Of a stretch of DNA of 64,000 nt, positions 1 through 25,594 are shown in pieces. Numbering within the stretch: position 1 is the stretch's first letter; every line of letters begins with the position of its first letter. The DNA lies in the IMG/VR virus record IMGVR_UViG_3300027749_000051, positions 1 through 64,000 of that record; one strand, written 5' to 3'. Below the pieces are notes generated by a model. The model saw only the letters and a program-made list of their open reading frames with translations, searched no databases and had not been told where the DNA came from. Source of the stretch: a virus. The translations under genes and the position numbers were made by a program.

Positions 1-2
1 GT

Positions 3-743
3 TCTGGTTCATCAGGAAGTTCTGGTTCAAGTGGTTCTTCAGGAACTAGTGGAACATCTGGATCTTCTGGAACATCAGGAACAAGTGGTTCGTCAGGCAC
101 AAGTGGAACTTCTGGTTCTTCAGGAACTAGTGGAACATCTGGATCTTCAGGTTCAAGTGGTTCTTCAGGTACAAGCGGAAGTTCAGGATCGTCAGGAAGT
201 TCTGGTTCAAGTGGTTCTTCAGGTACAAGTGGAAGTTCTGGATCATCAGGTACAAGTGGAACGGCAACTATTAATAATAACGTAGATAATTATGTAATTA
301 CTGCAACAGGAACTGCCGGAACCATTCAAGGTGAAACAAATATGAGATTTGATGGATCTACCTTGAGTATTACAGGTGATACCACAATGACGGGAGCATT
401 AACCGCGGCATCAAAATCATTTGATATTCCACATCCAACGAAAGATGGATATAGATTAAGATATGGTGTATTGGAAGGTCCTGAACATGGAGTGTATATT
501 AGAGGTTTTGCGATTTCAAATGTTATCGAATTACCTGACTATTGGACGGAATTAGTTCATGAAGATAGTATTACAGTTCAATTAACATCGGTAGGAAAAT
601 CAGATATTGATTACGTTGTTAAAGTTTATGAAAATAAAATATATTTAGATTCATCAACAGGAGAAATCAGTAGTTACTTCTTTGTTCAAGCAGAACGTAA
701 AGACATTGAAAAGGTTCTATTGGAATATAAACCGATAAGGTAA
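3..743 (+). CDS. 5'-truncated fibre protein: (Ser-Gly-Ser/Thr)n collagen-like repeat plus a conserved C-terminal phage fibre domain
   Basis: The frame from nt 3 is open into track ORF 342-743. It has 29 consecutive S-G-[S/T] triplets (3-263) and a C-terminal ASKSFDIPHP...LRYGVLEGPEHGVYIRG motif typical of large-phage fibre C-termini. Confidence 0.75.
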   Translation, partial: SGSSGSSGSSGSSGTSGTSGSSGTSGTSGSSGTSGTSGSSGTSGTSGSSGSSGSSGTSGSSGSSGSSGSSGSSGTSGSSGSSGTSGTATINNNVDNYVITATGTAGTIQGETNMRFDGSTLSITGDTTMTGALTAASKSFDIPHPTKDGYRLRYGVLEGPEHGVYIRGFAISNVIELPDYWTELVHEDSITVQLTSVGKSDIDYVVKVYENKIYLDSSTGEISSYFFVQAERKDIEKVLLEYKPIR

Positions 744-745
744 AT

Positions 746-775
746 AAAAAAGGGAGTCTTTAAACTCCCTTTTTT
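746..775. terminator. Bidirectional intrinsic terminator
   Basis: Perfect 12-bp stem AAAAAAGGGAGT-ctttaa-ACTCCCTTTTTT between convergent genes. Confidence 0.85.
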
Positions 776-792
776 ATTATAATTTAAACATA

Positions 793-3072
793 TTATAGGG
801 GTAATGAGTTGAAAACTTGTGATGGGGTTATTGATTTTTGGCAAATATGTTGTCTTTCTGTTCCTTTATATACAGGACACCAATCCCAATCTCCAGGATC
901 AAAAGTTAATACAGGGTCATTCCAACATTTAATACAAACATCGTTTGATACCCTTGTAACATTATGTGTACATTCATGGTTATTCTCGCTAAATCCTGCA
1001 ATCATTACTGTCTTTTTACCTAAAGCCCAATTAACCCAAGATAACCCTGAACTTAATCCAATAAAGAAGTCCGCATGAAATAAACAATTCATAACTTCAT
1101 TCCAATCTTTTGTGGTGTTGTTACGAACTCCTTCTATATTATATTCCTTTAATGATAATATCATTACTTCATATCCAATATCTTTTAACATTTTTGATAA
1201 TGACGCCCAGTTTTCAAAAGTCCATTCTTTACATCCCGCTGTTGATTGTGGACCAAATACAACATATTTGTTCTTTATTGGCCTTTTTGTTGGTTTGAAA
1301 TTTAGTTTATAATTAATCTCATTATACTCTAATCCTAATATGTCTGTTGCTAATTTTTGAAGTGGGATAAGATTAACTTGATTTGGATATGAGTCAAATT
1401 TTCTCCATTTTTGATTATCGTCTTTAAACCATCCTAATCTATAAATAACATCGCAAGGTATGGATTGTCCTGGTAATATAAATGCTATATCTTTATAATC
1501 TTCAGACCCTTTAAACCATTCATTATGAAATGTACTTAAGATGACCTTACAATTTTTTTGTTTCATTAGTTCGATTGCGTAAGGAGCCCAAGCAATAGTG
1601 TCACCGACAGCTTTGGTTTCAAAAGATATAAGGACAGTTTTTCCTTCTAATGTAAAGGTGTCAATTATTTGACCATTAACTTTAATTATCCAGGGAATAA
1701 AATACTTTTTAGAACATGATGTCCACATATTATTTGATATGGTATCTGAGAATATAACATCATTCGTTTTACGATTAATGAACTCAACAAAATATTTTTG
1801 ATTATTGTCTCCCTTAATCTCAACTCTTGGACCATCCATATAGGTTATTATGAATTCATTCTCTTTTGTTGGTTTATCTTCTAACCACGACTTCTTATCT
1901 AAAAATTCGTTAATTGTATTGATACCAATTTCGGCAATATGTTCCCAACTAAATTCAGTTCTAATTTCTTCGGATTCTACTAATGCTTTTTGTTTGTATG
2001 ATTGATAGTTTGTTACCACCTCTCTCATTTTTTTTCCTAAATCTTCAAAATCAGGTTCATAATAATTTCCAACAGAGTCGTTAAAGTGACTATACGTACT
2101 TGCATCGACAGGTTTTTCTCCAATGATTTTAACAGGAATACCTCTACCTTCGGCAAACTCTAATTGACCTGAACAATTTGAATAAATTGATGGGGTACCA
2201 CAAGCCATTGCTTCGATAAGGGGTAAGTTCCATCCTTCTGACCTTGCGCATGAAACAAATACATCACAAGATTTTAATAGTTTAATGTAATCTTCTCTTG
2301 GAGGAAAATGTAAAACCTTAATTCTATCATCTTCTAATCCATAATACTTTAATCGTTCTTCAGTTGTTTTCATATTATCTCCTGAAAAAGGATTATCAAC
2401 TGAGACAATTAAATCGACAGGTTCATCTTTATCAAATGTATTTAGGAATGATTCAATAACTTCTTTAATTGATTTTCTATAATCCCATCTGCCAGCCAAG
2501 AAGAACTTCATTCTTCCATCTGATGTTAAAGGATGTGATACTTCTTCAGGGAAAAATGTATTAACATCTACTCCTTCAGGGACAACTTTAATTTTATCGG
2601 GGTTATAACCTTGTGCGATAGAACAATCTCTTTGCCATTTAGATGGAACCCACAGTTCGTCAAATTCTTTTAGTTTATTAAAATATTGTTCTGGTTGTAA
2701 TGTTGATTCCCATACATTGTATGCAATTTTTGGACCAAAATAATTATCATAAAATAAATGATGGTTTGTTTCACATAGTATAATATTAACATCTGGTGCA
2801 AATTCTTTTGATTTGTCCTGATACATTTTATGATTGTTTCTAGATTTGTCTGAATTCCATAAAACTTGTTCATAGAGTAATTTCTTATCTATCTCGTTAA
2901 AATATGACTCTTTGTTGTGTGGTTCGGGATTCATTCCTTCCCACCCATTTCCTACTGTGAAATTTCTAACTTTAATTTGTGCGTGTTTGGATAGATGTCT
3001 AAAAAAATCCCTTGTGTGTTGGTTATATCCTGTATTTCCAACATAAGAACCGTGTGCAAATATTTTTGGCAT
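793..3072 (-). CDS. GT4 (GT-B) glycosyltransferase fused to a TibC/AAH-type (BAHT family) protein O-heptosyltransferase-like domain
   Basis: N-half has the GT4 motif RSEGWNLPLIEAMACGTP. C-half has AVGDTIAW, QSTAGCKEW, FIGLSSGLSWVNWALG and C-x2-C-x15-C-x11-C (CIKC...WCP...IC). Confidence 0.85.
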   Translation of the reverse strand: MPKIFAHGSYVGNTGYNQHTRDFFRHLSKHAQIKVRNFTVGNGWEGMNPEPHNKESYFNEIDKKLLYEQVLWNSDKSRNNHKMYQDKSKEFAPDVNIILCETNHHLFYDNYFGPKIAYNVWESTLQPEQYFNKLKEFDELWVPSKWQRDCSIAQGYNPDKIKVVPEGVDVNTFFPEEVSHPLTSDGRMKFFLAGRWDYRKSIKEVIESFLNTFDKDEPVDLIVSVDNPFSGDNMKTTEERLKYYGLEDDRIKVLHFPPREDYIKLLKSCDVFVSCARSEGWNLPLIEAMACGTPSIYSNCSGQLEFAEGRGIPVKIIGEKPVDASTYSHFNDSVGNYYEPDFEDLGKKMREVVTNYQSYKQKALVESEEIRTEFSWEHIAEIGINTINEFLDKKSWLEDKPTKENEFIITYMDGPRVEIKGDNNQKYFVEFINRKTNDVIFSDTISNNMWTSCSKKYFIPWIIKVNGQIIDTFTLEGKTVLISFETKAVGDTIAWAPYAIELMKQKNCKVILSTFHNEWFKGSEDYKDIAFILPGQSIPCDVIYRLGWFKDDNQKWRKFDSYPNQVNLIPLQKLATDILGLEYNEINYKLNFKPTKRPIKNKYVVFGPQSTAGCKEWTFENWASLSKMLKDIGYEVMILSLKEYNIEGVRNNTTKDWNEVMNCLFHADFFIGLSSGLSWVNWALGKKTVMIAGFSENNHECTHNVTRVSNDVCIKCWNDPVLTFDPGDWDWCPVYKGTERQHICQKSITPSQVFNSLPL

Positions 3073-3087
3073 TGTTGTCTGTTTTAG

Positions 3088-3117
3088 TTGAAATATAAGA
3101 TATAATGTGTATATTTT
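3088..3117 (+). promoter_or_regulatory. Possible host-type (Bacteroidota) promoter in the divergent intergenic region
   Basis: TTG-N19-TATATTTT upstream of 3136; a TATATTTC on the opposite strand precedes 3072. Confidence 0.35.
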
Positions 3118-3135
3118 AAAGATAAAAAAGGATTA

Positions 3136-4086
3136 ATGAAAGACCTAATATTAATTACAAATTATTCTCCAGATAGTAACCGGGAGCAATTATTAAGAGA
3201 TCTAGTTAATGATGTTAAAAATGAAAATTATGACATCATGATATCAACACATTCATTTGTTCCTAAAGATATATTTGATAATGTTAATTATGTTATATAT
3301 GATAAAGAAAATTTACTTTTAACTGATATTAATAGTAAAGTTGGATTTTTTTATAAAAATGATAAATTTACAATTAAAAGTACTGAAATATATGGTTTTA
3401 ATCATGCTGTTGCTGTTTTTAAATTACTTTCTTTAGGGTTAGTGAATGCTAAAAATTTGGGATATAAGAAGGTTCATCATTTTGAATATGATAGTAGAAT
3501 TTTAAAGACATTAGAAATTGAGAATAATTCTAAATTAATTGATATACATAGCGTTGTTTTTTATCTACCTACAAATTTACAATTTCCTAACTCACCAATA
3601 TCATTTAATTTAGATATGATATCGGAAGGATGGTTTGATGTTTCAAATAAGAAAATTATGTCATTTATGGAGGGAAATAATACTAAAATGTGTGAACAAT
3701 ATCAACAAACCCTTATAGATGAAATTGGAAATTATTATCAAAAAAAAGTATCTGATCTTGAATCAAATAATATATTAGTTGGAATTAATGTGGCTCCTAT
3801 TAAACATCCGTGGGTGGTATGTGTGTATAATAAAATTACAAATAAATTAATTTTATTTTGTTGGACTACAAATGAAATTAACGATATTGAAGTTAAATTA
3901 ATTGTTAATAATTCTAAATTATCTTATTATATTGTAAAACCTAATTGTTGGATAATAAGAGATATTGATGATATTGATAATATTGAAAATATTTTAATTA
4001 TAGTAAATAATGAAATAAGAAATTACTTAGATATGTCAAAGATAGACAAAGAATATTATAAACTTAAAAATCAAATTATAGAATAA
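3136..4086 (+). CDS. Putative GT-A-like glycosyltransferase; paralog of 8557-9483
   Basis: Rossmann-like start LILITNY; AKNLGYKKVHHFEYD parallels ALNLDYEQFYHMIYD in 8557; lies in the glycosylation cluster. Confidence 0.4.
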   Translation: MKDLILITNYSPDSNREQLLRDLVNDVKNENYDIMISTHSFVPKDIFDNVNYVIYDKENLLLTDINSKVGFFYKNDKFTIKSTEIYGFNHAVAVFKLLSLGLVNAKNLGYKKVHHFEYDSRILKTLEIENNSKLIDIHSVVFYLPTNLQFPNSPISFNLDMISEGWFDVSNKKIMSFMEGNNTKMCEQYQQTLIDEIGNYYQKKVSDLESNNILVGINVAPIKHPWVVCVYNKITNKLILFCWTTNEINDIEVKLIVNNSKLSYYIVKPNCWIIRDIDDIDNIENILIIVNNEIRNYLDMSKIDKEYYKLKNQIIE

Positions 4087-4087
4087 A

Positions 4088-4732
4088 ATGGCACAAGGAG
4101 TACATAGAATCACTCAAGAGTTTGAGGAAGAACTGTCAAAATATACGGGAGCACCACATGCAATCGCATTGGATAATATGAGTAATGCCTTATTTTTGGC
4201 GTTATATTATGAAAAAAACATTAAAAAATCATTGGAGGATAATGTAATTGATTGTCCGTCTAAAACATATCCATCTGTTCCTTGTGAAATTATTCATGCG
4301 GGATTGAAGGTTAACTTTACACCTGTTGAAGGCAAAACAATTAAAGGGGCGTATACCCTATCACCATCCAATGTTGTTGATTCCGCATTAAGATTTACTG
4401 CCGATATGTATGTTCCTAAAACACATATGTGTTTATCATTTACGGGACCATATAAGACTCTAAAACTAAGTAAAGGTGGCGCAATCTTAACTGATGATTA
4501 CCAAGCGATGTTATGGTTTAAACGAGCAAGATTTAGTGGTAGGAGAGAATGTTCATATCATGATGATAATTTTGATATGTTAGGTTGGAATTTCTATATG
4601 ATGCCAGAATTATCTGCAAGAGGGATATTAATGATGAATCAATTTTATAATTTAGACGGGACAAAAAAACATAATGAAGATTTGGAATTGCCTTATCCTG
4701 ATTTATCAAAATATGAAATTTATAAAAAATGA
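4088..4732 (+). CDS. DegT/DnrJ/EryC1/StrS-family PLP-dependent sugar aminotransferase (short form)
   Basis: FEEELSKYTGAPHAIAL..SNALFLAL; SFTGPYKTL (PLP Lys) followed by GGAILTDD; RFSGR and GWNFYM motifs. Only 214 aa. Confidence 0.8.
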   Translation: MAQGVHRITQEFEEELSKYTGAPHAIALDNMSNALFLALYYEKNIKKSLEDNVIDCPSKTYPSVPCEIIHAGLKVNFTPVEGKTIKGAYTLSPSNVVDSALRFTADMYVPKTHMCLSFTGPYKTLKLSKGGAILTDDYQAMLWFKRARFSGRRECSYHDDNFDMLGWNFYMMPELSARGILMMNQFYNLDGTKKHNEDLELPYPDLSKYEIYKK

Positions 4733-5505
4733 AAATAACTCAAACATTAGTCGCACCAGCTGTTAGTTTTTTTAAAAAAAATTTTATTTCAAGATATTCT
4801 TTTAAAGAATATTGTGATATTAACAAACCGTGTGTGTTTTTAGGCGGGAGAGAATTATCTACTCAAATACAAAATCATAAATCGTATAAATTTGTATTTC
4901 TCACAACACCAAATGATTTACCAAATTTTGATATAATAACTAATACCGAAAATTTGTTTATTATTAATATATCTGATGATGTTAGATTAAATTTAAAAAT
5001 ACCTGATAATGTTAAGTGTAAAAATTTGACAATAGAACTTAAAGATTATTCATTATTTCAATCTAATATTTTAGGGGATAAAATATATGCATATACTGGA
5101 TTTAAAAATGGGTGGGGTAATGAATGGAATGTTGAAAAATTAAAACAACTCCAAAAAAAGATTGATTATGAAATAATAACAACAAATCATTTAAATCTTA
5201 ATGATTATTATGACATAAATTATTTAAAAGAAAATTATTACGACAAATCTTTTCTTAATTTAAATTTATCAAATGGTAATGGAATGTCGACAGTTATAGA
5301 GCTTGGATTAATGGGTAGAAAAACAATATTGAATGAAAATTTTTATAAATATCCATGTATTTTAAATTATAAAAATGATGAAGATTTGATTAATTTAATT
5401 AATTATGAGAGTAGTAAAATAGGGATGTTACAGCCATCAATAAATTGTCATACAATAAATGATGAATGGTTAGATATTGATTTTTGGGTTAAAATAGATA
5501 AATAA
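4729..5505 (+). CDS. Hypothetical protein, possibly a GT-B C-terminal-like domain
   Basis: NGNGMSTVIELGLMGRKTI resembles the GT-B donor-binding motif; cluster context. Confidence 0.35.
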   Translation: MKITQTLVAPAVSFFKKNFISRYSFKEYCDINKPCVFLGGRELSTQIQNHKSYKFVFLTTPNDLPNFDIITNTENLFIINISDDVRLNLKIPDNVKCKNLTIELKDYSLFQSNILGDKIYAYTGFKNGWGNEWNVEKLKQLQKKIDYEIITTNHLNLNDYYDINYLKENYYDKSFLNLNLSNGNGMSTVIELGLMGRKTILNENFYKYPCILNYKNDEDLINLINYESSKIGMLQPSINCHTINDEWLDIDFWVKIDK

Positions 5506-5510
5506 TTAAA

Positions 5511-6092
5511 ATGAAAATATCATTATTCGGATATGGTGGACATGCAAGAGAAGTTGCACAACAGATTAATAAATCAATTACATTTTTTGTTGATGATGAA
5601 TATGTTAATGAATTTACTAGACCAATAAGTGAATTTGATCCTGAAGAATATGCTATTATGATAGCAGTTGCGGACTGTGAAGAAAGAAGAAATATTGTTT
5701 TAACGTTACCTAAAGAAACTAATTATTTTACTTTTATACATCCGACCGCTCTGATAATGGATACAAATATAAAAATAGGTGAAGGGAGTTTTATTGGGGC
5801 ATACTCAATTTTAACAACTAATATATTATTAGGAAATCACGCAATCCTGAATCGAGGAAATCATATTGGGCATGATTCAAAGATTGGAGATTATTTTAGT
5901 GCAATGCCGGGATCAATTGTTTCTGGAAATGTTACAATTGGAGATAATGTTTATATGGGAACCAATTCATCAGTTAAAGAAAAAATACAAATTTGCTCAG
6001 ATGTTAAAATCGGTTCAAACGCCACAGTAATTAAAGATATAACAATAAATGGAACTTATGTTGGAGTTCCTAGTCGACTTAAAACTAAATGA
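5511..6092 (+). CDS. NeuD/PglD-family sugar acetyltransferase (left-handed beta-helix)
   Basis: LFGYGGHAREV N-terminus; IHPTA; IGHDSKIGDY hexapeptide repeats; GTYVGVPS. Confidence 0.9.
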   Translation: MKISLFGYGGHAREVAQQINKSITFFVDDEYVNEFTRPISEFDPEEYAIMIAVADCEERRNIVLTLPKETNYFTFIHPTALIMDTNIKIGEGSFIGAYSILTTNILLGNHAILNRGNHIGHDSKIGDYFSAMPGSIVSGNVTIGDNVYMGTNSSVKEKIQICSDVKIGSNATVIKDITINGTYVGVPSRLKTK

Positions 6093-7966
6093 TAAAACAA
6101 ATTGCTTTAGTGGAAGTATGGTTAGGTAAGATACCTGACTATTTTCAATACCATATAGAAACAATAGGGTCATTGTCGTGTGTTGATTTTTACTTTTTTA
6201 CCGACGATAAGAATTATGATTTTTCAAAGATTACTCATAAAAATTTTCATTTAAATTACATTAGCGAAGGTGAGTTTTTGGATAGGTTTAATAGGGTCTC
6301 TAAAGTTAAGATCGATAGAATAACTCATCCAAAAAAAATAATAGATTTCAAGTTATCATATTTTGAAATGTTTTCTGATTATGTTAACTCTTATCGTTAT
6401 GTGGGAATATATGATATTGATACAATGTTTGGAGATATGAATCAAACATTGTTGGATTGTATTAATGACTATGATTTTATATCTATTGGGGATGAGGTTT
6501 TTCATAATAGATTAAGTGGTCCTTTATTGATAGTTCGGAATACTTCAGAGTTTCATGATTTAATGAAAACAGACCGATATTACGAGACATTATTAATGGA
6601 TGACATATATGGTTACGGAGAACAAGAACTATCTGTAATCGCCCATAATAATTATAAGGTTAAGATATTACATTCAATGAATACTGATACAAAGAATGGA
6701 GGTAAAACGACCTATGATGTCTGTTGGAAAGGTGGAAAATTATATTCAGGCGATGAAGAAAAATTAATTTATCATTTCTATCGTAAAGGACATACAACCT
6801 TTCAAAAAGTTGGTAACCAGATTTATGCCAGATATGATAAAAAATTTCTAAATGACTTCTTTTGGGTTTTTGGGTTTACGGAGAATTATTCGGAGGCAGT
6901 ACCACATCTGATGGATTCGATTAATAAATATTCAAATAGAAAGTGTATTATATACACAATAAATTTTGACTATAATATTCCTCAAAAGTTTTTAACTAGT
7001 GAACAGTTTATCTTTAGAAGAATTGAAATTGAGGAAGGTCATAAAGATTATAGAGGTAGAGATGAAAATATTATTAGTTGTAAGCCAAAGTTGATGATTG
7101 ACGTGGTTACTCAATATCCTGATGATAGATTCATATTCATAGATAGTGACATTTATTTAACAACATCTGCTGATGATTTATGTAAACACTTTAATGAGCT
7201 AACTACTTATCCATTAATTAACTCTCATATTCATGATGTCGTTTATCATTCAGGAATAATTGAAGGAGAAAAATGGACAAGTACCGCTCATATTTTAGCA
7301 AAGAAAATTGATGTTGATATTTGCGTATTCCCAAGAAGAAAAACAAATGTAATGCTTTTTGATAACCGGTCAAAATGGTTTTTTGAGGAACAGATTGATG
7401 TGTATGAAAAGTATAAAAATACAGAAAAGGGAATATTTGCATTACACGATGAAGATTCTGCAAATGTTATCTTATCAAAGTATAATCTATATGGATGTAT
7501 ACCTTTATCTGATATTGAGGATTGTAGTGATATTAAATTAGAAACAATTACAGATTTAAATAATCCATTTCATATGACACAGATTTCTCCATCTGTTAGA
7601 TTACCACAAACAGTTAATGATATTGCGGTCTTTCATGGAATGAAAGATATTATCAAATTCCAAGAAATCGAAGAGAATTATGGAAAAAATGTTTTAGATT
7701 GTGAGGAAATTTTAACATATTATAAGGATAATACAATTTTTTTTGAGAAAAATTCATTCTTATCGACAAAGACTTTAAGTGGTAAATTTGATTTTATTGT
7801 AAAAAATAAAGATGGTGTTATTTTACAACAATTATTAAATCAATCTTTAATGAAGTATTGGATTTTTTATATTTCTAATGTTCATTTGGATAAAGGAGAT
7901 TATATTATTGAAATAATAAAAACAAGTGATAAACAAAAAGTTTATAATAATTTAATTAGTGTATGA
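6089..7966 (+). CDS. Two-domain putative glycosyltransferase (DUF6625-like plus GT-A DxD domain)
   Basis: WLGKIPDYF...FFTD...IDFKLSY...GIYDIDTMFGD; second domain CKPKLMID...FIFIDSDIY. Confidence 0.6.
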   Translation: MIKQIALVEVWLGKIPDYFQYHIETIGSLSCVDFYFFTDDKNYDFSKITHKNFHLNYISEGEFLDRFNRVSKVKIDRITHPKKIIDFKLSYFEMFSDYVNSYRYVGIYDIDTMFGDMNQTLLDCINDYDFISIGDEVFHNRLSGPLLIVRNTSEFHDLMKTDRYYETLLMDDIYGYGEQELSVIAHNNYKVKILHSMNTDTKNGGKTTYDVCWKGGKLYSGDEEKLIYHFYRKGHTTFQKVGNQIYARYDKKFLNDFFWVFGFTENYSEAVPHLMDSINKYSNRKCIIYTINFDYNIPQKFLTSEQFIFRRIEIEEGHKDYRGRDENIISCKPKLMIDVVTQYPDDRFIFIDSDIYLTTSADDLCKHFNELTTYPLINSHIHDVVYHSGIIEGEKWTSTAHILAKKIDVDICVFPRRKTNVMLFDNRSKWFFEEQIDVYEKYKNTEKGIFALHDEDSANVILSKYNLYGCIPLSDIEDCSDIKLETITDLNNPFHMTQISPSVRLPQTVNDIAVFHGMKDIIKFQEIEENYGKNVLDCEEILTYYKDNTIFFEKNSFLSTKTLSGKFDFIVKNKDGVILQQLLNQSLMKYWIFYISNVHLDKGDYIIEIIKTSDKQKVYNNLISV

Positions 7967-16981: not shown

Positions 16982-16995
16982 AAAAATAGATTAAA

Positions 16996-17493: not shown

Positions 17494-17494
17494 T

Positions 17495-17590
17495 TTGAGA
17501 GTAGTATCTTACTATATGGGATTCGGTGCGGGAACAGGAGGTTCTACTGATAATCAAGAATTACTTTCTTGGAGTTTAACCTTCACCTAA
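17495..17590 (+). pseudogene. Relic C-terminal fragment of a legume-type (L-type) lectin domain
   Basis: Frame reads LRVVSYYMGFGAGTGGSTDNQELLSWSLTFT*, matching the YxGFxAxTG...LSWS end of L-type lectins; an in-frame stop lies at 17486. Confidence 0.55.
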
Positions 17591-17603
17591 TTAGATTACT
17601 AAT

Positions 17604-17632
17604 AAAAAGAAGACCTAAAGTCTTCTTTTTTT
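17604..17632 (+). terminator. Intrinsic terminator
   Basis: AAAAAGAAGAC-ctaaa-GTCTTCTTTTT. Confidence 0.8.
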
Positions 17633-17642
17633 GATACCAATG

Positions 17643-17650
17643 TATTTATA
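17643..17650 (+). promoter_or_regulatory. TATTTATA putative late promoter
   Basis: Just after the terminator, ending 12 nt before ATG 17663. Confidence 0.6.
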
Positions 17651-17662
17651 ATTAAATAGAAA

Positions 17663-18964: not shown

Positions 18965-19024
18965 TGAATATGAGTTAGTGACGTTTAATTTAAATTAATA
19001 AAAAATAAAAATTATAAAAAATAA

Positions 19025-20521
19025 ATGGCAAGGTATTTTGACATAAAGATAACAGGAGGAACCGCAGCAGGACCATATAGTATTTACTATGATTCTGTAA
19101 ATCCGGTTACAGTTGCGTTAATAACGTCGAGTAGTTTACCTGCGACAGGTCTCACATATAGTGATATGACAACGGGTGATGGCGTTAATGTGACAATACC
19201 AAATGATGCAAATAGTTTATTATGTTATAATAATAGATGTTTTACAGCAGATACCTATAATGTTATTCCACTATCTCCTACACCAACTCCTACTAACACA
19301 CAAACGCCAACCAATACTGTTACTCCTACTAACACACAAACACCTACTAATACCACTACTCCAACTAACACACAAACACCTACTAATACCGCTACTCCTA
19401 CTAACACACAGACACCTACTAATACCACTACTCCAACTAACACACAAACTCCAACTACAACAACTACGTTGACTGCTACTCCTACTAATACACAAACACC
19501 AACCAATACTGCTACGCCTACTAATACTATGACACCAACTAACACTACTACTCCTACTAACACACAAACACCTACTAATACCGCTACTCCTACTAACACA
19601 CAGACACCTACTAATACCACTACTCCAACTAACACACAAACTCCAACTACAACAACTACGTTGACTGCTACTCCTACTAATACACAAACACCAACCAATA
19701 CTGCTACGCCTACTAATACTATGACTCCGACCAATACTATGACTCCGACTCATACTATGACACCAACTAACACTACTACTCCTACTAATACGCAAACACC
19801 GACTAATACAATAACCGCAACACCAACAGTGACACCAACACCTACAAGATCGTACTACTTATATGTTGTTGATGCATATGACTGTAATTCTGGACCAACT
19901 TGTACACCATCAGCAACAAGTCAAATATTATTTGACCAGAATAATAGTGGAATCCTTAGTAACGGAAGTTATTATACTGATAATGGAGATACTGGTGGAC
20001 AAGTATTTAACATATTAAGTCAATATTTAGGATCGTCAGGTCCAAACTATGTTACTTATGTGGTACATACGCCTTATGGTAGTTGTGATGCTGCATGTTC
20101 TGCATTATTCCCGCCTACACCAACACCAACCCCTACTCAAACACCAACACCAACAAATGTTCCTACATCATATAGTGTTGATGTTTACGCTGGAATGTCA
20201 TCATCAATACCTTTTGGGTCCAATTTCTATGTATATTATCAAATTGACAATAATACTGTGGTACTACTTGCAATTAAAACAACGAATACTTGTGAATATT
20301 TGGGAACAATTAATGTTGACCCTGGATCGACGCTTTATTTGACTATTTTAGTAGGTGGGGCGGATGTTGAGTATCAGGTGAATAATTTAACTGATTGTAA
20401 TGGTGGAGGAACAATTTATTGTGGACAGGTAGTTCCATATTCTATGATTGCATATGGGGGATCATATACTAGATCATTAAATCCAATAATATCTGGCGGT
20501 AATTATGTACAATGTCCTTAA
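19025..20521 (+). CDS. Virion-type protein with a long TPTNTQ mucin-like stalk
   Basis: Residues of about 84-275 are almost entirely T/P/N/Q/A/M repeats, flanked by Cys-containing domains. Confidence 0.7.
19364..19725 (+). repeat. In-frame tandem duplication: two identical 170-bp copies, 192-bp period
   Basis: 19364-19533 and 19556-19725 read identically. Confidence 0.85.
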
Positions 20522-20543
20522 TTAATTATAATATAAAAATAAG

Positions 20544-20816
20544 ATGGATATAAGTAATATAAGTTTTAATGTGGCACCTAACGGTAATAAAGTTGGAGAT
20601 CTATTTTTTCCAAATAGTTATGGGTTGACAATATTAGAGACTAACGGATCTCTTACATATGATGTGTCGTTTTTACAGAAAGTGAGTGATGGAGCTTGGT
20701 TAACCGAGATGGATGGTAATATGAGAACCATAACAGAAATAAACCATTTAAAAGATGTAACTGAAGAACAAGTTAATACCTATATCTTACAAGTGGAAAA
20801 TTTACCAAATAAATAA
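20544..20816 (+). CDS. Hypothetical protein
   Basis: ORF with clean boundaries, followed by a terminator. Confidence 0.5.
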   Translation: MDISNISFNVAPNGNKVGDLFFPNSYGLTILETNGSLTYDVSFLQKVSDGAWLTEMDGNMRTITEINHLKDVTEEQVNTYILQVENLPNK

Positions 20817-20834
20817 ACTAATATTTGGTATAAT

Positions 20835-20868
20835 AACCCCCTTCTTTCAAATAGATGGGGGTTTTTTA
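20835..20868 (+). terminator. Intrinsic terminator
   Basis: AACCCCC..TCT-ttcaaat-AGA..GGGGG followed by a T run. Confidence 0.75.
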
Positions 20869-20899
20869 TTGTCCCTTGAAAAAGAAATGTTTGTTCTAA

Positions 20900-20906
20900 T
20901 ATTTAT
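20900..20906 (+). promoter_or_regulatory. TATTTAT putative late promoter
   Basis: Between the terminator and ATG 20948. Confidence 0.45.
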
Positions 20907-20947
20907 TTAGAGATTTAATAATCTCAAATCTTTAATATATTAGATGT

Positions 20948-21169
20948 ATGGCAATAAAAACAATAATAAACGGTATCACGGGTCAGTCGCCATATAATAT
21001 TTATGTCTGTCAACCAAACGGGTCTGGATGTTATTTTATTGCGACAACAAGTGTAATACCTTATCAATTTGATGTACCACCACCGGGTAATACTTCATCT
21101 GCATATATGTTAAAAGTTATTGATGCGAATAATTGTACCATAACAGGAGTTACCAGTGTGGTATCATAA
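20948..21169 (+). CDS. Small beta-rich structural protein; paralog of 14020-14226
   Basis: See 14020. Confidence 0.6.
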   Translation: MAIKTIINGITGQSPYNIYVCQPNGSGCYFIATTSVIPYQFDVPPPGNTSSAYMLKVIDANNCTITGVTSVVS

Positions 21170-21189
21170 TAATTAAATAATCATAAATA

Positions 21190-23310
21190 ATGCCAGTTAC
21201 ATCTCCGACACCAACGCCAACGATTACTAATACTCCAAGTACCACACCAATTATTTGTGGTAGTGGTGCAACGACTGGTAATTATTATTATTCAGATTGT
21301 TGTGGTAATTTCATTCAAGGAATATCAGGAGCATCGATTAATGTTATTTATGATTATACAAAACCATCTAATGGTATTGCCCGATTAAATATACCTGTTG
21401 CAACAAATTGCCCAACTCCAACATCTACTCCAACACCAACAATAACTCCAACAAATACTATTACGCCAACAATAACTCCAACAAGTACATTAACACCTAC
21501 TCCGACATCGACGCCTACTTCAACACCAACTGCGAGCGGAGTTTATGGATTAAAAAATGAATGTGAAGTTTTCACATTATTTGACATGGGAATTTCGTGT
21601 AATCCGTTACTTCTACCCTCAACCGCCACATCAACAGATGGTATATTATCAATAAATGTAACGGGAGGAACCTCACCATATTCTTATTATTGGGCAGGAG
21701 GACAAAGATCACAAACATTAATCGGAGTTCCTGCAGGTTATTATGAGGTTACGGTTGTCGATTATTATGGAGACTATACCGCAAATACTGTCTGTAGTTT
21801 AGTTATACCAACGCCTACTCCAACAACAACGACAACACCAACTATGACTCCAACACCATCTGCAGTTTATCCTCAACTTTGTCTAATTGCCGTTAGTTCA
21901 CAATCAACAGTTGGTCCGACACAATTTACATATGTTGGAGTTTCTAATGGAAAACCAGCTTGGCAATATAATTCAACTCTATATATTGTATGGTCTCTAT
22001 CTAAGAGTCGATGGGAAATTCTAACATCAGATATGGTTACACCATATATTATTCCTGGTGGTGGTATTTTGGCTAGTACTACAACAAACTCTATTCCTGA
22101 TGCGGGATGGGCAGCAATTGGTGGAACACAAACTTATGCCGTAACTATGACTCAAGGAACATGCCCAGCCCAAATACCTTTACAGGTAATACTTAGTTCA
22201 GAAAATACCACTTGTAATTCACAAACTAATTGTAATGGAAGTATTACCGTTACATCACTTTATGGAGTTGCCCCTTATAGGTATTCTATTAATGGTGGTG
22301 TTACATATCAAACTTCAAATATTTTTGAGGGATTATGTCCAAATACTTATAGCGTGATAACACAAGATAGTAGTCTAACAACTCAAACAAATTCAATTTC
22401 AGTTGGATTTAATAGTGCTCCTGTAACATATCAATTACAATTACAAGCCATACCAGCAGAAACTGTTACAGTTAATAATCCAAATTATTCTTCTAATAAA
22501 ACGGTCTTACAAGTTATTTCAACACCAGCATTACCTGCGGGAGTGACAATAAACTTTGATTTATCAACTTCAATTATTAAAACATATAATGGACCGGGAA
22601 CAGGATCGGTAAATTATGTTCTGAATGTTAACCAAGCGGGAGTACCTCAATCACCAACAACAACTACAACACCTATTACACAAACAAGTACACGACCTTA
22701 TTGTAGTCCTGAAGAAACAACAACAGTTAATGAGACTGATACATATAGTTTACAACTAAGTAGTGTTTCACCAGTAATATTGACTGGTACAACAGTTCTT
22801 ATTATAACAGACGGACAAATTTCAACAAATAGTTGTGTGACTAACTTAACCGAAACTATATATGGACAATTTACAAATGTGTTTATAAATGGATGTAATT
22901 GTTGTAGTGTAGTTCCTGATACTTCAAACAATCAACTTAACTATAATACATTAAATTATAACTCAAGTGCACCAATAATACCAGTACCTGTTCCAGGTGT
23001 GTATTCAGTTAACTGGTCGTTTACAAGTGGTGGATCTAAAGATTCGTTTGAACTATTAAAAAATAATGTTTCAGTAGTTGGTCCTAGAAGCTTAAGTGGG
23101 TCAGGTTCATTTGCAGGATGGACATCAAGTGATTCTATTAAAGTGATACAATATATCGATCCTGAGGGATCACTTACAAATTCAGATTTATCATTGACAA
23201 TGGGAAGTACTCCTTATATTAGTAATGTTCAATTACCTGATAGTGATACATCTTTAATTGGCCCTATTTTTATGGAAGGTGATGTTACAATCTACGGGAC
23301 AACTTATTAA
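21190..23310 (+). CDS. Virion-type protein with Pro/Thr linkers and two SprB-like repeats
   Basis: DGILSINVTGGTSPYSYYW...GVPAGYYEVTVVD and NGSITVTSLYGVAPYRYSING...GLCPNTYSVITQD. Confidence 0.65.
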   Translation: MPVTSPTPTPTITNTPSTTPIICGSGATTGNYYYSDCCGNFIQGISGASINVIYDYTKPSNGIARLNIPVATNCPTPTSTPTPTITPTNTITPTITPTSTLTPTPTSTPTSTPTASGVYGLKNECEVFTLFDMGISCNPLLLPSTATSTDGILSINVTGGTSPYSYYWAGGQRSQTLIGVPAGYYEVTVVDYYGDYTANTVCSLVIPTPTPTTTTTPTMTPTPSAVYPQLCLIAVSSQSTVGPTQFTYVGVSNGKPAWQYNSTLYIVWSLSKSRWEILTSDMVTPYIIPGGGILASTTTNSIPDAGWAAIGGTQTYAVTMTQGTCPAQIPLQVILSSENTTCNSQTNCNGSITVTSLYGVAPYRYSINGGVTYQTSNIFEGLCPNTYSVITQDSSLTTQTNSISVGFNSAPVTYQLQLQAIPAETVTVNNPNYSSNKTVLQVISTPALPAGVTINFDLSTSIIKTYNGPGTGSVNYVLNVNQAGVPQSPTTTTTPITQTSTRPYCSPEETTTVNETDTYSLQLSSVSPVILTGTTVLIITDGQISTNSCVTNLTETIYGQFTNVFINGCNCCSVVPDTSNNQLNYNTLNYNSSAPIIPVPVPGVYSVNWSFTSGGSKDSFELLKNNVSVVGPRSLSGSGSFAGWTSSDSIKVIQYIDPEGSLTNSDLSLTMGSTPYISNVQLPDSDTSLIGPIFMEGDVTIYGTTY

Positions 23311-23337
23311 AATTAAAAAATAAAAGAAAAGGGAGAA

Positions 23338-23344
23338 TATTTAT
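23338..23344 (+). promoter_or_regulatory. TATTTAT putative late promoter
   Basis: Ends 6 nt before ATG 23351. Confidence 0.55.
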
Positions 23345-23350
23345 CAAGAT

Positions 23351-25594
23351 ATGGCTTATATAATAAAAAATACTGCTGGGTTAATTAACACAAGACTTAC
23401 AGATGTTGGAAGAAGATATCTGTCTGAGGGTAACTTTAATATATCCTATTTCCAAGTTGGAGATAGTGAAGTAAGTTATACTGCGGTACCAAACTATAAT
23501 CAAACGAATAACAATATTTTAATGCCTGCGTTTAATGCTCAGAATGACTCAGGATCGCCACAATCGAATAAAGAAAATATTAAATATCCATATTATGTTG
23601 CGGGAAATGCTGGTAACACTTATGGTATACCTTTTATGAATAGTGATATTCAACCCGTCTATAATGCTGCAGGACCTAAAGGATTTTTTGTTACAGGTGG
23701 TACACAGGGAAATTGGGTTGCTCAAACAAGCTCGGCATATACAATAACATCAAACTACCAAGTGGATATGACAGACCTATCAGGTCAGACTAATATTGAT
23801 ATTACTTTAGATTTTTGTTCAACAACAACAGGGACTCCATCAATTGGAGATTTTGTTACAATAATTTATGATGGAAATGGTGGATGTGGTGATATTTCCA
23901 CATTTCCTGTGTTAACATATAAATTACAAGGACTTAGTCCGTCAACAGGAACAACAGCAACAACCTTTACAATAACTTTAGATAGACCTGTTCCTGATTA
24001 TACAGGATTGGTTACCGCAGGAGAGATGGGTCGTGTTCTGATTTATCCATCAGGTATGACTGTCTTATATGACTTTATAACACCGGCACCTTATTGGCAA
24101 ACAGACACCTTAAACTTTGAGTCACCATGTGATGTGACAAATCGTGAGAATACTTTAATTTGGAATATGAACATACCTTGGACTGAGAATCCTGCGGGTG
24201 TTTATAGTAGTACATATGAAGATTACACACAATATGGGTCAGTAAGTTACATAGGGACAAAAGAATATTTGGGTTATAATGAACCATCAGGTCAAACATT
24301 TTATGTTAGCGCTACGAAACCTGCTGAGGTGACGGACACATATTATTATAATTCTTTTGACGAAACGGTAAAAGTTTATCCTAAAGAACAAAAAGCCATT
24401 GCGATTATCCATTATACGAATCAAGATATTGATAATGTATATGGAGAAAAATTCTCAACACAACCTTATGATCCACAAAATCCAACAGACGATATTGGAT
24501 TGGCGAGACATTTCAAATTGACAATACCAACATTAATGTGGCATAAGTCAACGGGTACAAGTATAGGTGAGACCTTTTGGATTGATCCTCCTGGATATGA
24601 TTTATGTTATCCCGCCTACATTAAGTCGACCAAGAATATTGATATGAATGATCCTGGTATCAGGTATTTCCATTTATGGGATACTAATACTGATGATAAT
24701 GGAAACTTAAATAGAATCGGAAAAGTTTTTCCTGATCAACAAACTGTTATTATCGATGATGAAGAGGTTATTGCGGCACTTTCATATAAGGCAAATAGAA
24801 ACTGGACATTACCAGCGCCTAAGTTATCATTATTAACACCAAATGCTTGTTTTAGTAATAACTCAACGGCAACAGGTGTATTTACAGATCCAAGTCAGAA
24901 AATGTATATGACTTATAGGTTTGATTCAACAGGGTTCACAAATTCTTTACATTGTAATTACTATTCAACTATTTCTGCCACCTCAACAGTGACGGGAGAT
25001 AGTCAGAATGTTGCGGTAAGATTTGGTCCTGAATTTGGATTTTTAAATCAACCATCAGGATCTTTAACGGTCTCTGATTTAAGTGGATATACCGCAAACT
25101 CAATAAAACTTTTATGTCAAATTGTTACAGGAGACACAAGACCAAGTTCAACAGCTTGGAAAGAAATTGATGTAACATCCGAAATAAGCGGAAGCTCCAT
25201 AAATGGTTATTTAACTATGAGTGGTTTAACGGGAACAACTTTCCAAATTGATCAAGACTCATATAATAACGCAACCAGTTATAATTTAGGCCCTATCTTA
25301 GATTTACCATTAAATGGTCAGTCAACTCAATTAAATTTCGGGGAAGAATTTTATTTTTATGGAATGTTGGATACTGACATTAGTGCCACCATCTATGAGA
25401 TGAAGTATCTTATTAATCTTGGTAGAAATCAATTTTCTAATACATCCAACCCTACTTGGACTTCGGGAACGACCTCATATGTAACAGAAATAGGGTTGTA
25501 CAATACCCAAAAGGATTTATTACTTATCTCAAAGTTACAATCTCCAGAGTTACGGCAGGGGATTCAACAGTATGTGATAAAGTATGACTGGTAA
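23351..25594 (+). CDS. Conserved large-phage structural (baseplate/tail-like) protein
   Basis: TRLTDVGRRYL...YFQVGDSEVSY N-terminus and YVTEIGLYN..DLLLISKL C-terminus, typical of jumbo-phage baseplate-region proteins. Confidence 0.5.
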   Translation: MAYIIKNTAGLINTRLTDVGRRYLSEGNFNISYFQVGDSEVSYTAVPNYNQTNNNILMPAFNAQNDSGSPQSNKENIKYPYYVAGNAGNTYGIPFMNSDIQPVYNAAGPKGFFVTGGTQGNWVAQTSSAYTITSNYQVDMTDLSGQTNIDITLDFCSTTTGTPSIGDFVTIIYDGNGGCGDISTFPVLTYKLQGLSPSTGTTATTFTITLDRPVPDYTGLVTAGEMGRVLIYPSGMTVLYDFITPAPYWQTDTLNFESPCDVTNRENTLIWNMNIPWTENPAGVYSSTYEDYTQYGSVSYIGTKEYLGYNEPSGQTFYVSATKPAEVTDTYYYNSFDETVKVYPKEQKAIAIIHYTNQDIDNVYGEKFSTQPYDPQNPTDDIGLARHFKLTIPTLMWHKSTGTSIGETFWIDPPGYDLCYPAYIKSTKNIDMNDPGIRYFHLWDTNTDDNGNLNRIGKVFPDQQTVIIDDEEVIAALSYKANRNWTLPAPKLSLLTPNACFSNNSTATGVFTDPSQKMYMTYRFDSTGFTNSLHCNYYSTISATSTVTGDSQNVAVRFGPEFGFLNQPSGSLTVSDLSGYTANSIKLLCQIVTGDTRPSSTAWKEIDVTSEISGSSINGYLTMSGLTGTTFQIDQDSYNNATSYNLGPILDLPLNGQSTQLNFGEEFYFYGMLDTDISATIYEMKYLINLGRNQFSNTSNPTWTSGTTSYVTEIGLYNTQKDLLLISKLQSPELRQGIQQYVIKYDW

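Follow-up and report, generated by a model that had tools for sequence, protein, structure and literature searches.

The window, as the whole 64,000-nucleotide stretch analysed here is called, carries ten genes in a row (793-10864, from its ORF listing) that resemble sugar-modifying enzymes. The question raised by this locus is whether an uncultured lake jumbo phage uses these enzymes on its own virion and, if so, on which protein, or on the surface of its host. The reading favoured here, to which a probability of about two in three is assigned, is that the enzymes of the island work in the cytoplasm to glycosylate the collagen-like fibre of the phage itself.

Composition of the island and the adjoining fibre gene

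Nine genes of the island (3136-10864) form a tight plus-strand operon in which stops and starts overlap or abut, and g1 (793-3072) alone lies on the minus strand. The fibre gene to its left is convergent with g1, the two ends being 50 bp apart.

3-743 (+): fibre, C-terminal 246 aa; gene cut by the contig start; proposed glycan acceptor
3-285 (+): proline-free (GSS/GTS)n triplet tract of the fibre, 94 aa within the window (translation, DNA)
288-740 (+): distal fibre knob domain, a conserved beta-sandwich (relatives, AF2 model)
793-3072 (-): g1, GT4 glycosyltransferase fused to a TibC/Aah-type protein O-glycosyltransferase (BAHT)
796-1860 (-): g1 C-terminal module (aa 405-759), BAHT; proposed to start the glycan on fibre Ser/Thr
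1861-3072 (-): g1 N-terminal module (aa 1-404), a retaining GT4 glycosyltransferase that would lengthen the glycan
3136-4086 (+): g2, weak paralogue of g8 and, judged from it, probably a transferase of GT-A fold
4088-4732 (+): g3, miniature DegT/PseC-like PLP aminotransferase (214 aa versus about 370)
4729-5505 (+): g4, soluble protein
5511-6092 (+): g5, NeuD/PglD/VioB-type amino-sugar N-acetyltransferase
6089-7966 (+): g6, DUF6625 N-terminal domain and a 375-aa C-terminal part
7963-8556 (+): g7, class-I SAM methyltransferase of the Methyltransf_24/CmcI sugar-O-methyltransferase type
8557-9483 (+): g8, nucleotide-sugar transferase of GT-A fold, with a beta domain at its C-terminus
9480-10025 (+): g9, Vat/CatB-type hexapeptide acetyltransferase, probably an O-acetyltransferase
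10022-10864 (+): g10, probable FkbM-type methyltransferase (weak)

The SGS/SGT fibre that the original prediction had placed on the left flank was recovered as 94 aa of pure GSS/GTS triplets followed by the conserved knob. The product matched Pfam Collagen (E=1.6e-13) and PHROG tail-fibre families (phrog_17490/28536). Full-length relatives measure 1067-3343 aa, with up to 369 triplets without interruption, and relatives of the knob are encoded in 370 viral loci. The AF2 model of the knob (pLDDT 80) gave its best matches with distal domains of tailspikes and tail fibres, at modest structural scores (7eea, Z 7.6; 4mtm, Z 6.1; 6cu2, Z 5.7).

All ten island genes had been taken for glyco-enzymes. 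Their consecutive arrangement was confirmed, and 8 of the 10 were supported in that role. The searches yielded no assignment for g4 or for the C-terminal part of g6: g4 gave no hit and had a homologue in a single relative (L036, 79% identity), while searches with the C-terminal 375 aa of g6 returned no match. The N-terminal domain of g6 matched PF20330 (E=1e-19). The number of GT-like domains, put at up to seven, came down to four with direct support (two in g1, one each in g2 and g8), to which the N-terminal domain of g6 may add a fifth. For g8, an AF2 model (pLDDT 89) retrieved glycogenin and the GT domain of LH3 in Foldseek (E~3e-5, probability 1.0), with GT25/WavE as the Atlas lead (0.89-0.90). 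Neither Pfam, NCBIfam nor PDB sequences yielded a match for g2, which was linked to g8 by BLASTP (22% identity over 129 aa, E=3e-5).

The expected aminotransferase, two acetyltransferases and two methyltransferases were all encountered, at different levels of support. The short aminotransferase g3, the most conserved gene of the island (73-91% identity in relatives), matched PF01041 (E=5e-13), strongly only at profile positions 26-98, and was also matched by PseC/LegC models. It appears to retain the Schiff-base Lys motif, the region of which aligned weakly with 8vr5, and appears to represent a cut-down DegT fold of uncertain activity. The acetyltransferase g5 contained PglD_N and Hexapep and scored 149.3 bits against TIGR03570, just below the subfamily cut-off of 160.8; g9, also with Hexapep, matched NF000490 and NF000311 at E~1e-40, under their equivalog cut-offs. 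Comparison of g7 with Methyltransf_24/CmcI-type clusters gave ESM Atlas feature scores of 0.97-0.98 and structural TM values of 0.8-0.9, and the FkbM match of g10 was weak (PF05050, E=0.002; TIGR01444, E=3.5e-4; both under cut-off). No tailoring set of the lineage is richer than this one, in which an aminotransferase is joined by acetyltransferases and methyltransferases, two of each, and by additional GT-A enzymes, which makes the window suited to seeking an unusual sugar. The core conserved among relatives consists of the GT4-BAHT gene and the fibre; the rest of the island differs from one relative to the next, its genes being present, missing or attached as fusions (FkbM, GT32-like, GT25, PIG-L).

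The GT4-BAHT enzyme and its repeat-protein partner

TIGR04414 matched g1 with 215.1 bits (cut-off 200), aligning aa 411-756 with positions 16-370 of the 374 in the model, and relatives of g1 scored 199-333 bits. Residues 405-754 matched the TibC structure (PDB 4RAP) with E=8e-39 over 350 aa. Residue roles established for TibC, including the catalytic base and the phosphate and sugar contacts (PMC4358343), could be transferred to the alignment. D491 of g1 corresponds to the catalytic base D110 and is Asp in all 34 unique phage homologues; T611, K615 and W679 correspond to T226, K230 and W305 and are conserved in 33-34 of the 34. The iron-finger cysteines C339/342/358/370 align with C713/C716/C732/C744, kept in 33/34 phage homologues as putative iron ligands. 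By enzyme homology as judged from these alignments, and not by substrate class, g1 aa 405-756 is a member of the BAHT family. TibC R286, which specifies ADP/adenine, is V660 in g1 and is replaced in 33/34 phage homologues (Arg in 1/34). A heptose pathway is not encoded either (PfkB, SIS_2 and CTP_transf_like genes were not found in the contig or in complete relatives), so that the donor may be a compound other than ADP-heptose.

The N-terminal module of g1 matched PF00534 (E=4e-17) and has an EX7E motif at E279-E287. A GT4 domain preceded the BAHT module in 8/8 long architectures tested, and the GT4-BAHT proteins of relatives carry fused FkbM domains.

Co-occurrence of the island with Ser/Thr-repeat fibres across related genomes had been suggested as a check on a glycosylated coat, and for the SGS/SGT (GSS/GTS) fibre the outcome was strongly positive. 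In the forward direction, G-[ST]-[ST] repeat ORFs made up 16/384 ORFs in BAHT loci versus 1/636 in BAHT-less phage loci (p=1.5e-6). In the reverse direction, 79 loci were fetched via the fibre knob domain. A BAHT gene was present in the same fetched locus for all of the ~24 GSS/GTS-triplet fibres, at distances of 26 bp to 7.1 kb, as well as in 2 knob loci with a GAQ/GPQ/GPT collagen, and in 0 of ~50 related fibre loci without collagen repeats, a comparison partly confounded by shared ancestry since the latter loci belong to more distant fibre lineages. The convergent fibre-BAHT order, with gaps of 26-800 bp, persisted at BAHT identities of 41-83%. No Ser/Thr collagen was seen on the BAHT contigs L003 (full +/-10 kb flanks), L011, L015 and L026, which are fragments 6-17% complete.

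Cellular BAHT homologues (TIGR04414, 256-333 bits) from Proteobacteria and Bacteroides MAGs, in a gene context unrelated to that of the phage, were located 8-130 bp from genes for small secreted proteins or lipoproteins with (G-S/T-S)n tracts. Such tracts were flagged in 20/132 near ORFs and in 6/344 far ORFs of these loci (Fisher p=1e-7). Beside the cellular homologues no autotransporter domain was found, the partners being the small G-S/T-S proteins, and on a complete Methylobacter chromosome the BAHT context consisted of ordinary chromosomal genes. We found no paper describing a pairing of BAHT with G-S/T-S fibres.

Proposed glycosylation of the fibre and alternative readings

Enzyme identities, conserved catalytic residues, gene adjacency and co-occurrence across genomes are shown by the analysis; the glycan itself, most likely carried by the fibre, is proposed throughout from comparative evidence. 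The infected cell would produce the fibre, whose (Gly-Ser/Thr-Ser)n chain is very long, lacks proline and bears a knob at its distal end. BAHTs modify proteins in the cytoplasm, the sole compartment in which virion proteins are available. The TibC-like C-terminal module of g1 would place a first sugar onto triplet Ser/Thr hydroxyls, and the fused GT4 together with two to four GT-A enzymes (g2, g8, perhaps g6) would extend the glycan. The products of g3, g5, g9, g7 and g10 could build or decorate an N-acetylated amino-deoxy sugar bearing O-methyl or O-acetyl groups, from a 4-keto-6-deoxy precursor made by dehydratases encoded elsewhere in the genome or by the host. NDP-sugar 4,6-dehydratase/SDR enzymes are encoded by complete relatives of 176-321 kb. 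The outcome would be dense, bottle-brush-like glycosylation of the fibre, in which the sugars plausibly stiffen or stabilise the putative proline-less helix and shield it from proteases or recognition. A point against this reading is that the TATTTATA motif, which precedes the first GAQ collagen gene (54621) as well as t1 and t5 in the region 11200-23310, was not found in the island promoter region, so that co-expression of the island with virion genes lacks support.

A broader virion glycocalyx, in which many virion proteins are glycosylated, is compatible with fibre glycosylation. Its chief acceptors would be found in two further regions of the window:

11200-23310 (+): t1-t7, seven genes for modular proteins, five with Thr-Pro linkers (composition, domains); possible secondary acceptors
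54621-59402 (+): three collagen-like fibres of the GAQ/GSQ/GAT type, terminating in S74 chaperones and of a class different from the GSS/GTS fibre

Every [TPT] tract of the 125 kb contig falls in five ORFs of the first region, directly downstream of the island, and weak PHROG matches of t1-t7 were to virion proteins. Within the lineage, loci with BAHT contained TPT-rich ORFs more often than loci without it (33/231 versus 20/636), the transferases may outnumber those that one glycan needs, with two GT-A enzymes lacking a known acceptor, and in two related lineages (L016, L055/56) the island adjoins GAQ/GPQ/GPT collagens. Against these points, TPT-rich proteins also occurred in 15 loci without BAHT, in just 4/33 BAHT-ascertained phage loci and in 0/508 ORFs of cellular BAHT loci, so that Thr/Pro tracts track BAHT weakly, and no island enzyme is known to act on them. 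The description of this region as 12 kb of Thr/Pro mucin-like proteins was overstated: Thr/Pro/Ser tracts account for 813/4360 residues (19%), resemble linkers that join the globular domains (LamG, SPRY-like, SprB repeats) and are absent from t4 and t8. The collagens at 54.6-59.4 kb are real, but their Thr content is moderate (15% in the first, 9% in the second) rather than rich, and a specific tie to the island found no support. An O-glycosylated coat as originally envisaged is retained for the phage's own Ser/Thr-repeat fibre, on the grounds of BAHT family membership, co-occurrence and the lack of every membrane step of the host-surface alternative, and not for a whole-virion glycocalyx centred on modular Thr/Pro proteins; the broader version is considered unlikely, at perhaps one chance in a few.

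Host-surface conversion, in which the island would alter LPS, capsule or surface glycoproteins of the host and, for example, block superinfection, is decidedly improbable. Sets of aminotransferase, acetyltransferase, methyltransferase and GT genes are typical of O-antigen and capsule loci, and cyanophage GT sets are usually read in this way (PMC12801897). A host-type TAnnTTTG-like motif lies at 3061-3068, upstream of the operon. Every membrane step is missing, however. Host-surface conversion is disfavoured because no island protein has a membrane segment (0 TM-like segments; maximum 19-residue hydropathy <1.6 throughout), and no Pfam or NCBIfam match to an initiating phosphoglycosyltransferase, flippase, polymerase or ligase was obtained among the island proteins. 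Moreover, g1 belongs to a protein-glycosylating family, and the gene with which it is conserved as a neighbour encodes a phage fibre and has no part in polysaccharide synthesis.

Of similarly low probability is a lineage artefact, in which a single group of large aquatic phages merely inherited fibre and island together as accessory neighbours, without any enzyme-substrate link between them. The positive loci came mostly from related freshwater phages, and the BAHT-negative fibres are more distant in the knob (50-60% identity), but the two genes stay paired where BAHT identity has fallen to about 40% and where the fusion architecture differs, and the pairing recurs in Proteobacteria and Bacteroides MAGs with a small secreted repeat partner in unrelated context. 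Least probable of all is that the TibC-like module acts as a non-catalytic ring chaperone that threads or trimerises the long fibre while the sugar genes serve another purpose: TibC assembles into a dodecameric ring, with the elongated substrate lodged in its channel and bound by the iron finger (PMC4358343), the cysteines of which are conserved in the phage proteins, but the catalytic Asp, the beta-phosphate-binding Thr/Lys and the sugar-contacting Trp are invariant in 33-34/34, as is unexpected for a non-enzyme, and an intact GT4 domain always accompanies the module in the same protein.

Relation to known systems and significance

Among characterised systems, TibC-TibA and Aah-AIDA-I of E. 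coli (bacterial autotransporter heptosyltransferases, BAHT; TIGR04414; PDB 4RAP/4RB4; PMC4358343) have enzymes homologous to g1 over all 350 aa, from the N-terminal beta-barrel through the GT-B core to the iron finger. Conserved between them are the catalytic Asp, the Thr/Lys that contact phosphate, the Trp that contacts the sugar, and four Cys. In both cases a cytoplasmic enzyme is encoded beside a long, repetitive, Ser-rich substrate with many sites, putative in the phage. The TibC/Aah partner is an autotransporter beta-helix with strand-loop-strand repeats, whereas the partner is a (G-S/T-S)n fibre in the phage and a small secreted repeat protein in the bacteria described above. Unlike TibC/Aah, g1 is virus-borne, and the phage BAHT always stands behind a GT4 domain, often with a methyltransferase or further GT domains.

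SgtA of C. difficile, encoded immediately upstream of bclA3, O-glycosylates Thr/Ser of collagen-like GPT repeats (PMC7157674). The SgtA-BclA3 pair of Clostridioides difficile and BclA of the Bacillus anthracis exosporium nap (PMC7157674, PMC10470788) share with the phage fibre the design of a hair-like, collagen-type filament with Gly-X-Thr/Ser triplets, which are O-glycosylated in these proteins and proposed to be so in the phage. The GT gene directly adjoins the collagen-like gene (50 bp in the phage, 26-800 bp in most relatives), and a Gly-X-Y tract with Thr/Ser is followed by a C-terminal globular domain, in the phage the knob. SgtA accepts Ser as well as Thr. In contrast, SgtA has a GT-A fold and TPR repeats and is not related to BAHT, and the BclA3-type repeats are GPT, contain proline, are far shorter than those of the phage and belong to a spore surface rather than a virion.

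Giant viruses such as Mimivirus have their own pathways for rare amino and methylated sugars and GTs that decorate surface fibrils without host machinery; they are eukaryotic viruses with enzyme families and fibril proteins different from those of the phage island. Virion glycosylation of the mycobacteriophages Che8 and Rita was reportedly described by Freeman et al. in 2023. As summarised in PMC11256854, mycobacteriophage capsids carry glycans, and phage-encoded GTs of Che8 and Rita modify the phages' own structural proteins, which leads to a glycan shield, a likeness to the proposal made here. The same summary gives major capsid proteins as acceptors, actinobacterial hosts and GT genes near the 3' end of the genome, not beside the acceptor gene, and describes neither a BAHT-type enzyme nor a collagen-like fibre (PMC11256854).

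A wider generalisation is put forward tentatively, at somewhat less than even odds. In large aquatic phages, free-living Proteobacteria and Bacteroidota, a whole branch of TibC/Aah enzymes may serve collagen-like proteins with proline-free (Gly-Ser/Thr-Ser)n chains instead of autotransporters. Dense O-glycosylation from a donor other than ADP-heptose could give such chains the rigidity of fibres that extend over hundreds of nanometres, onto which the variable operon would write a strain-specific sugar code.

To our knowledge, phage virion glycosylation has been documented experimentally for a few actinobacteriophages only, and we know BAHT enzymes solely as virulence-associated modifiers of E. 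coli-type autotransporters. If the proposed fibre glycosylation is correct, a well-studied enzyme family would extend to viruses and would gain collagen-like repeats as a new class of substrate, and many genes now annotated automatically as 'autotransporter heptosyltransferase' would need correction. It would also account for the way in which proline-free Gly-Ser/Thr-Ser chains of thousands of residues serve as fibres, and would mean that glycosylated virions in lakes and oceans can be told by a genomic signature that is both widespread and easy to recognise.

The triplet-repeat fibre and its pairing with BAHT genes

The source contig, a 125,154-bp IMG/VR virus with a CheckV completeness of ~42%, was considered to be a fragment of a ~300 kb jumbo phage, because relatives that have both the fibre gene and the enzyme genes are up to 317-321 kb long, with terminal repeats in one of them. 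The remaining window genes are of large-phage type (primase, SbcCD-like nuclease, two Dam methylases, a sigma-70 factor and DnaJ), and collagen-like fibres with S74 chaperone ends are also encoded. Megablast of positions 1-25000 against deposited phages returned nothing beyond one 250-bp repeat match, and a search for tRNA genes found none.

The gene at 3-743, which is cut by the contig start, encodes the final 246 aa of a fibre, in which 94 aa of pure GSS/GTS triplets are followed by a conserved domain. Full-length relatives (1067-3343 aa) have a short N-terminal domain, triplet runs (at most 369 uninterrupted) separated by small globular domains, and a C-terminal knob. The knob was predicted to form a beta-sandwich (pLDDT 80). 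A Foldseek search with the knob gave no match below E=0.04, and an exhaustive structural aligner gave modest Z scores of 5-7.6, with distal domains of phage tailspikes and tail fibres as the best matches (Pam1, Z 7.6; AP22 gp53, Z 6.1; R2 pyocin fibre, Z 5.7). The knob was therefore termed "fibre-tip-like" rather than a family member. From the predicted structure, the left-hand gene product is read as a putative virion fibre.

Relatives of the TibC-like (BAHT) module of the island gene g1 were found in 33 IMG/VR loci, ~24 of which share its fusion to a GT4 domain. A giant (GSS/GTS)n collagen-like protein (up to 2030 aa, 32-47% Ser) was encoded less than 5 kb from the BAHT gene in at least eight independent lineages, with gaps as small as 28 and 199 bp. 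For the reverse test, about 80 loci were fetched via the non-repeat C-terminal domain of the fibre. All ~24 GSS/GTS-triplet fibres had a BAHT gene in the same fetched locus, as did two GAQ/GPQ/GPT-collagen fibres; the loci of the ~50 fibres that lack collagen repeats contained no BAHT gene. The link between island and Ser/Thr-repeat fibres drawn in the original prediction was thus recovered in both directions for the GSS/GTS fibre and BAHT. G-[ST]-[ST] repeats were present in 16/384 ORFs of BAHT loci versus 1/636 in BAHT-less phage loci (p=1.5e-6), and the convergent fibre/enzyme layout, with gaps of 26-800 bp, held at BAHT identities of 41-83%. Locus L003, with full flanks, carried BAHT but no G-S/T-S fibre; this locus and three others with BAHT in which no such fibre was seen (L011, L015, L026) are on contigs that are 6-17% complete. 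In L030, a seeming exception, the repeat lay just outside the fetched flank.

In every long architecture the GT4 module was N-terminal to BAHT, with optional fusions to an FkbM or class-I methyltransferase, GT32-like, GT25 or PIG-L domain. Other island genes were found in some relatives and missing from others, so that fibre and GT4-BAHT constitute the conserved core and the operon a variable tailoring set. In the cultured Microcystis phage Mel-JY01 (L001; PP395634), a 1226-aa gene at 4750-8430 annotated "methyltransferase FkbM" is a GT4-BAHT fusion that matches g1 at 44% identity over 99% coverage; it adjoins a "structural protein" gene, and 3 kb downstream of it is a gene labelled "cytidylyltransferase like protein".

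Shared ancestry alone could also account for the association of fibre and BAHT in phages. When 185,579 species genomes were scanned with a profile, 34 BAHT loci at ≤40% identity were obtained, besides two phage-like scraps in archaeal MAGs. The cellular BAHT genes (Methylococcales, Burkholderiales, Arenicellales and Bacteroides MAGs), whose products scored 256-333 bits on TIGR04414, were located 8-130 bp from small (G-S/T-S)n proteins with a signal peptide or lipobox. Such repeats occurred in 20/132 ORFs within 1.5 kb of BAHT versus 6/344 farther off (p=1e-7). In a complete Methylobacter chromosome, the BAHT gene was flanked by ordinary chromosomal genes, and no autotransporter domain was found near it. 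This recurrence of the pairing in bacteria weakened the shared-ancestry objection and also suggests that the TIGR04414 family name is too narrow.

The two scraps, L116 (3.9 kb, Woesearchaeota bin) and L125 (13 kb, Pacearchaeota bin), are low in GC. Both carry the phage-type GT4-BAHT fusion together with DegT-like and PglD-like genes, at 57-89% identity with those of the window, and both probably come from phages and were placed in archaeal MAGs by a binning error. Three small neighbours of cellular BAHT genes, all predicted lipoproteins (L134:11194-11841, L136:8636-9058 and L140:8563-8976), have an LxxC lipobox and a (GSS/GTS)n tract, and their poly-Asp/Glu tails are strongly acidic. To our knowledge, this type of protein has not been described.

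Right-hand genes and other collagens

All Thr-Pro-Thr tracts of the entire contig fall in five ORFs at 11200-23310. Such tracts were thus present where 12 kb of mucin-like proteins had been predicted, but "mucin-like" was an overstatement: they link globular LamG, SPRY-like and SprB-repeat domains and make up 19% of residues across the eight genes at 11200-25594 (t1-t8). The proteins at 54.6-59.4 kb were indeed collagens, but of GAQ/GSQ/GAT type, which sets them apart in class from the left-hand fibre. A broad glycocalyx, in which the Thr-Pro-linker proteins and these other collagens would be modified too, was weakly supported, since Thr-Pro-rich proteins also occurred in 15 BAHT-less loci, in just 4 of the 33 BAHT-ascertained phage loci and in 0/508 ORFs of cellular BAHT loci.

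Three right-hand genes, t2 (14340-15335), t3 (15341-16981) and t5 (17663-18964), share an N-terminal domain of ~70 aa (MATTRxFAYN...WWxGPDExLGYVIA...SGNTQPT), and their distal parts diverge (LamG, a domain without assignment, and SPRY-like). They look like one virion-attachment module with exchanged receptor-binding heads. Beyond the window, 102965-103936 encodes a 323-aa Thr/Ser/Gly-rich protein with a C-terminus like that of t2, probably a further LamG-type paralogue of this family. ORFs of 159 aa (Val/Gly-rich) and 174 aa (Ser/Arg/Cys-rich) at 19255-19795 on the minus strand, inside t6, were rejected as genes because they are mirror-frame artefacts of its repeated ACN-CCN Thr-Pro codons. 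Directly after the structural block, 25584-26459 encodes a Lys/Glu-rich 291-aa protein with a C-terminal HNH-like motif (HIDHIIP...N), probably a homing-type endonuclease.

Copies of TATTTATA close to gene starts (the first three lie 20-65 nt upstream)
11135-11142, upstream of t1
17643-17650, upstream of t5
54594-54601, upstream of the first GAQ collagen (54621)
60404-60411, minus strand, just upstream of the gene at 59416-60399 (minus strand)

The motif was not enriched in the window (10 observed versus 13.7 expected). It was not found in the divergent promoter region of the island (3073-3135), and the island was therefore not assigned to the late class.

Island enzymes and the catalytic module of g1

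The predicted run of ten consecutive genes at 793-10864 was borne out as one minus-strand gene and a plus-strand operon of nine, in which stops and starts overlap or abut. Sugar-enzyme support was obtained for eight of the ten.

Island genes with assignments
g1, 793-3072, minus strand: GT4 domain and second GT-B domain
g2: weak paralogue of g8
g3, 4088-4732, plus strand: short (214 aa) DegT/PseC-like aminotransferase, Schiff-base Lys motif region kept
g5: NeuD/PglD-type N-acetyltransferase (149 bits; cut-off 160.8)
g6: N-terminal DUF6625
g7: class-I SAM methyltransferase, Methyltransf_24/CmcI type (ESM Atlas match)
g8: GT-A transferase by predicted fold (pLDDT 89), resembling glycogenin and the LH3 (lysyl hydroxylase) glycosyltransferase domain
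g9: Vat/CatB-type hexapeptide acetyltransferase
g10: FkbM methyltransferase, weak match

Sequence searches of Pfam, NCBIfam and PDB gave no match for g2, g4, the C-terminal part of g6, g7 and g8. Subsequently, g7 was assigned via a structure/feature atlas and g8 via its predicted fold; g4 and the last 375 aa of g6 remained without a match in these databases. Up to seven GT-like domains had been proposed, of which four were supported, with one more possible. Both proposed acetyltransferases (g5, g9) and one methyltransferase (g7) stood, the proposed aminotransferase corresponds to the shortened, DegT-like g3, and the second methyltransferase depends on the weak FkbM match of g10. The best-conserved island gene was g3 (73-91% identity; homologues in L003, L004, L036-L039 and L057). 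Its product lacks ~40% of the normal DegT fold; it may be an aminotransferase reduced to a minimum, or else a PLP domain that has taken on another role. At 3061-3068, ~70 nt before g2 begins and where the opposite strand encodes the 5' end of g1, TATTTTTG fits the Bacteroidota-type TAnnTTTG -7 box, a possible host-type promoter of the tailoring operon.

Residues 405-756 of g1 scored 215.1 bits on TIGR04414, the Aah/TibC "autotransporter O-heptosyltransferase" equivalog (cut-off 200), and 350 residues aligned with the TibC crystal structure 4RAP (E=8e-39). In TibC, Asp110 is the catalytic base, Thr226 and Lys230 contact the beta-phosphate, Trp305 contacts the sugar, Arg286 contacts adenine N1, and Cys339/342/358/370 form an iron finger (PMC4358343). 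The g1 equivalents of the first four are D491, T611, K615 and W679, and those of the iron-finger cysteines C713/716/732/744; these Asp, Thr, Lys, Trp and four Cys residues were kept in 33-34 of 34 unique phage homologues. The Arg286 position is V660 in g1 and Val, Thr, Ser or Leu in 33 of the 34. By its conserved residues, the module belongs, with its catalytic site intact, to a cytoplasmic protein-glycosylating family, and its nucleotide specificity is probably unlike that of TibC. The GT4 half of g1 retains its EX7E motif. A domain search of the 125 kb contig found no PfkB, SIS_2, CTP_transf_like or NTP_transferase domain, and heptose-pathway kinase (PfkB) and isomerase (SIS_2) domains were not found in three complete relatives; g1 was therefore not called a heptosyltransferase. 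A DNA-glycosylating role for g1 was rejected on account of its protein GT family and its conserved partner, a fibre gene.

Alteration of the host surface instead of the virion, the alternative raised in the original prediction, is unlikely: the island encodes no membrane step, with TM-like segments in 0/10 of its proteins, and its lead enzyme, g1, is a protein transferase. The invariance of the catalytic residues argues against a purely structural TibC-like ring without catalysis.

Proposed fibre glycosylation and its precedents

In the preferred reading, glycosylation of the triplet fibre, the BAHT module of g1 would begin a glycan on triplet Ser/Thr in the cytoplasm, and the GT4 module and GT-A enzymes would lengthen it. 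The products of g3 and g5 may turn a 4-keto-6-deoxy sugar nucleotide into an N-acetylated amino sugar; 4,6-dehydratase/SDR enzymes are encoded by complete relatives (one at 400 bits), and none was found in this contig. O-methyl groups would be added by g7 and g10, and O-acetyl groups by g9. The sugars would stiffen and protect the proline-free fibre chain.

In Clostridioides difficile, the gene for SgtA lies directly upstream of bclA3, and the enzyme places O-GlcNAc on Thr of the GPT collagen repeats of BclA3, a spore-surface filament, and also accepts Ser (PMC7157674). SgtA/BclA3 is the closest functional precedent for the proposed enzyme-substrate pair of BAHT and collagen-like fibre. For mycobacteriophage capsids, self-glycosylation by the phage has been documented (summarised in PMC11256854). 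In a literature search, no paper was found that connects TibC-type enzymes or heptosyltransferases with phages or collagen-like proteins. BAHT enzymes, glycosylated collagen-like filaments and phage virion glycosylation are each of a known kind; their combination and the substrate class would be new.
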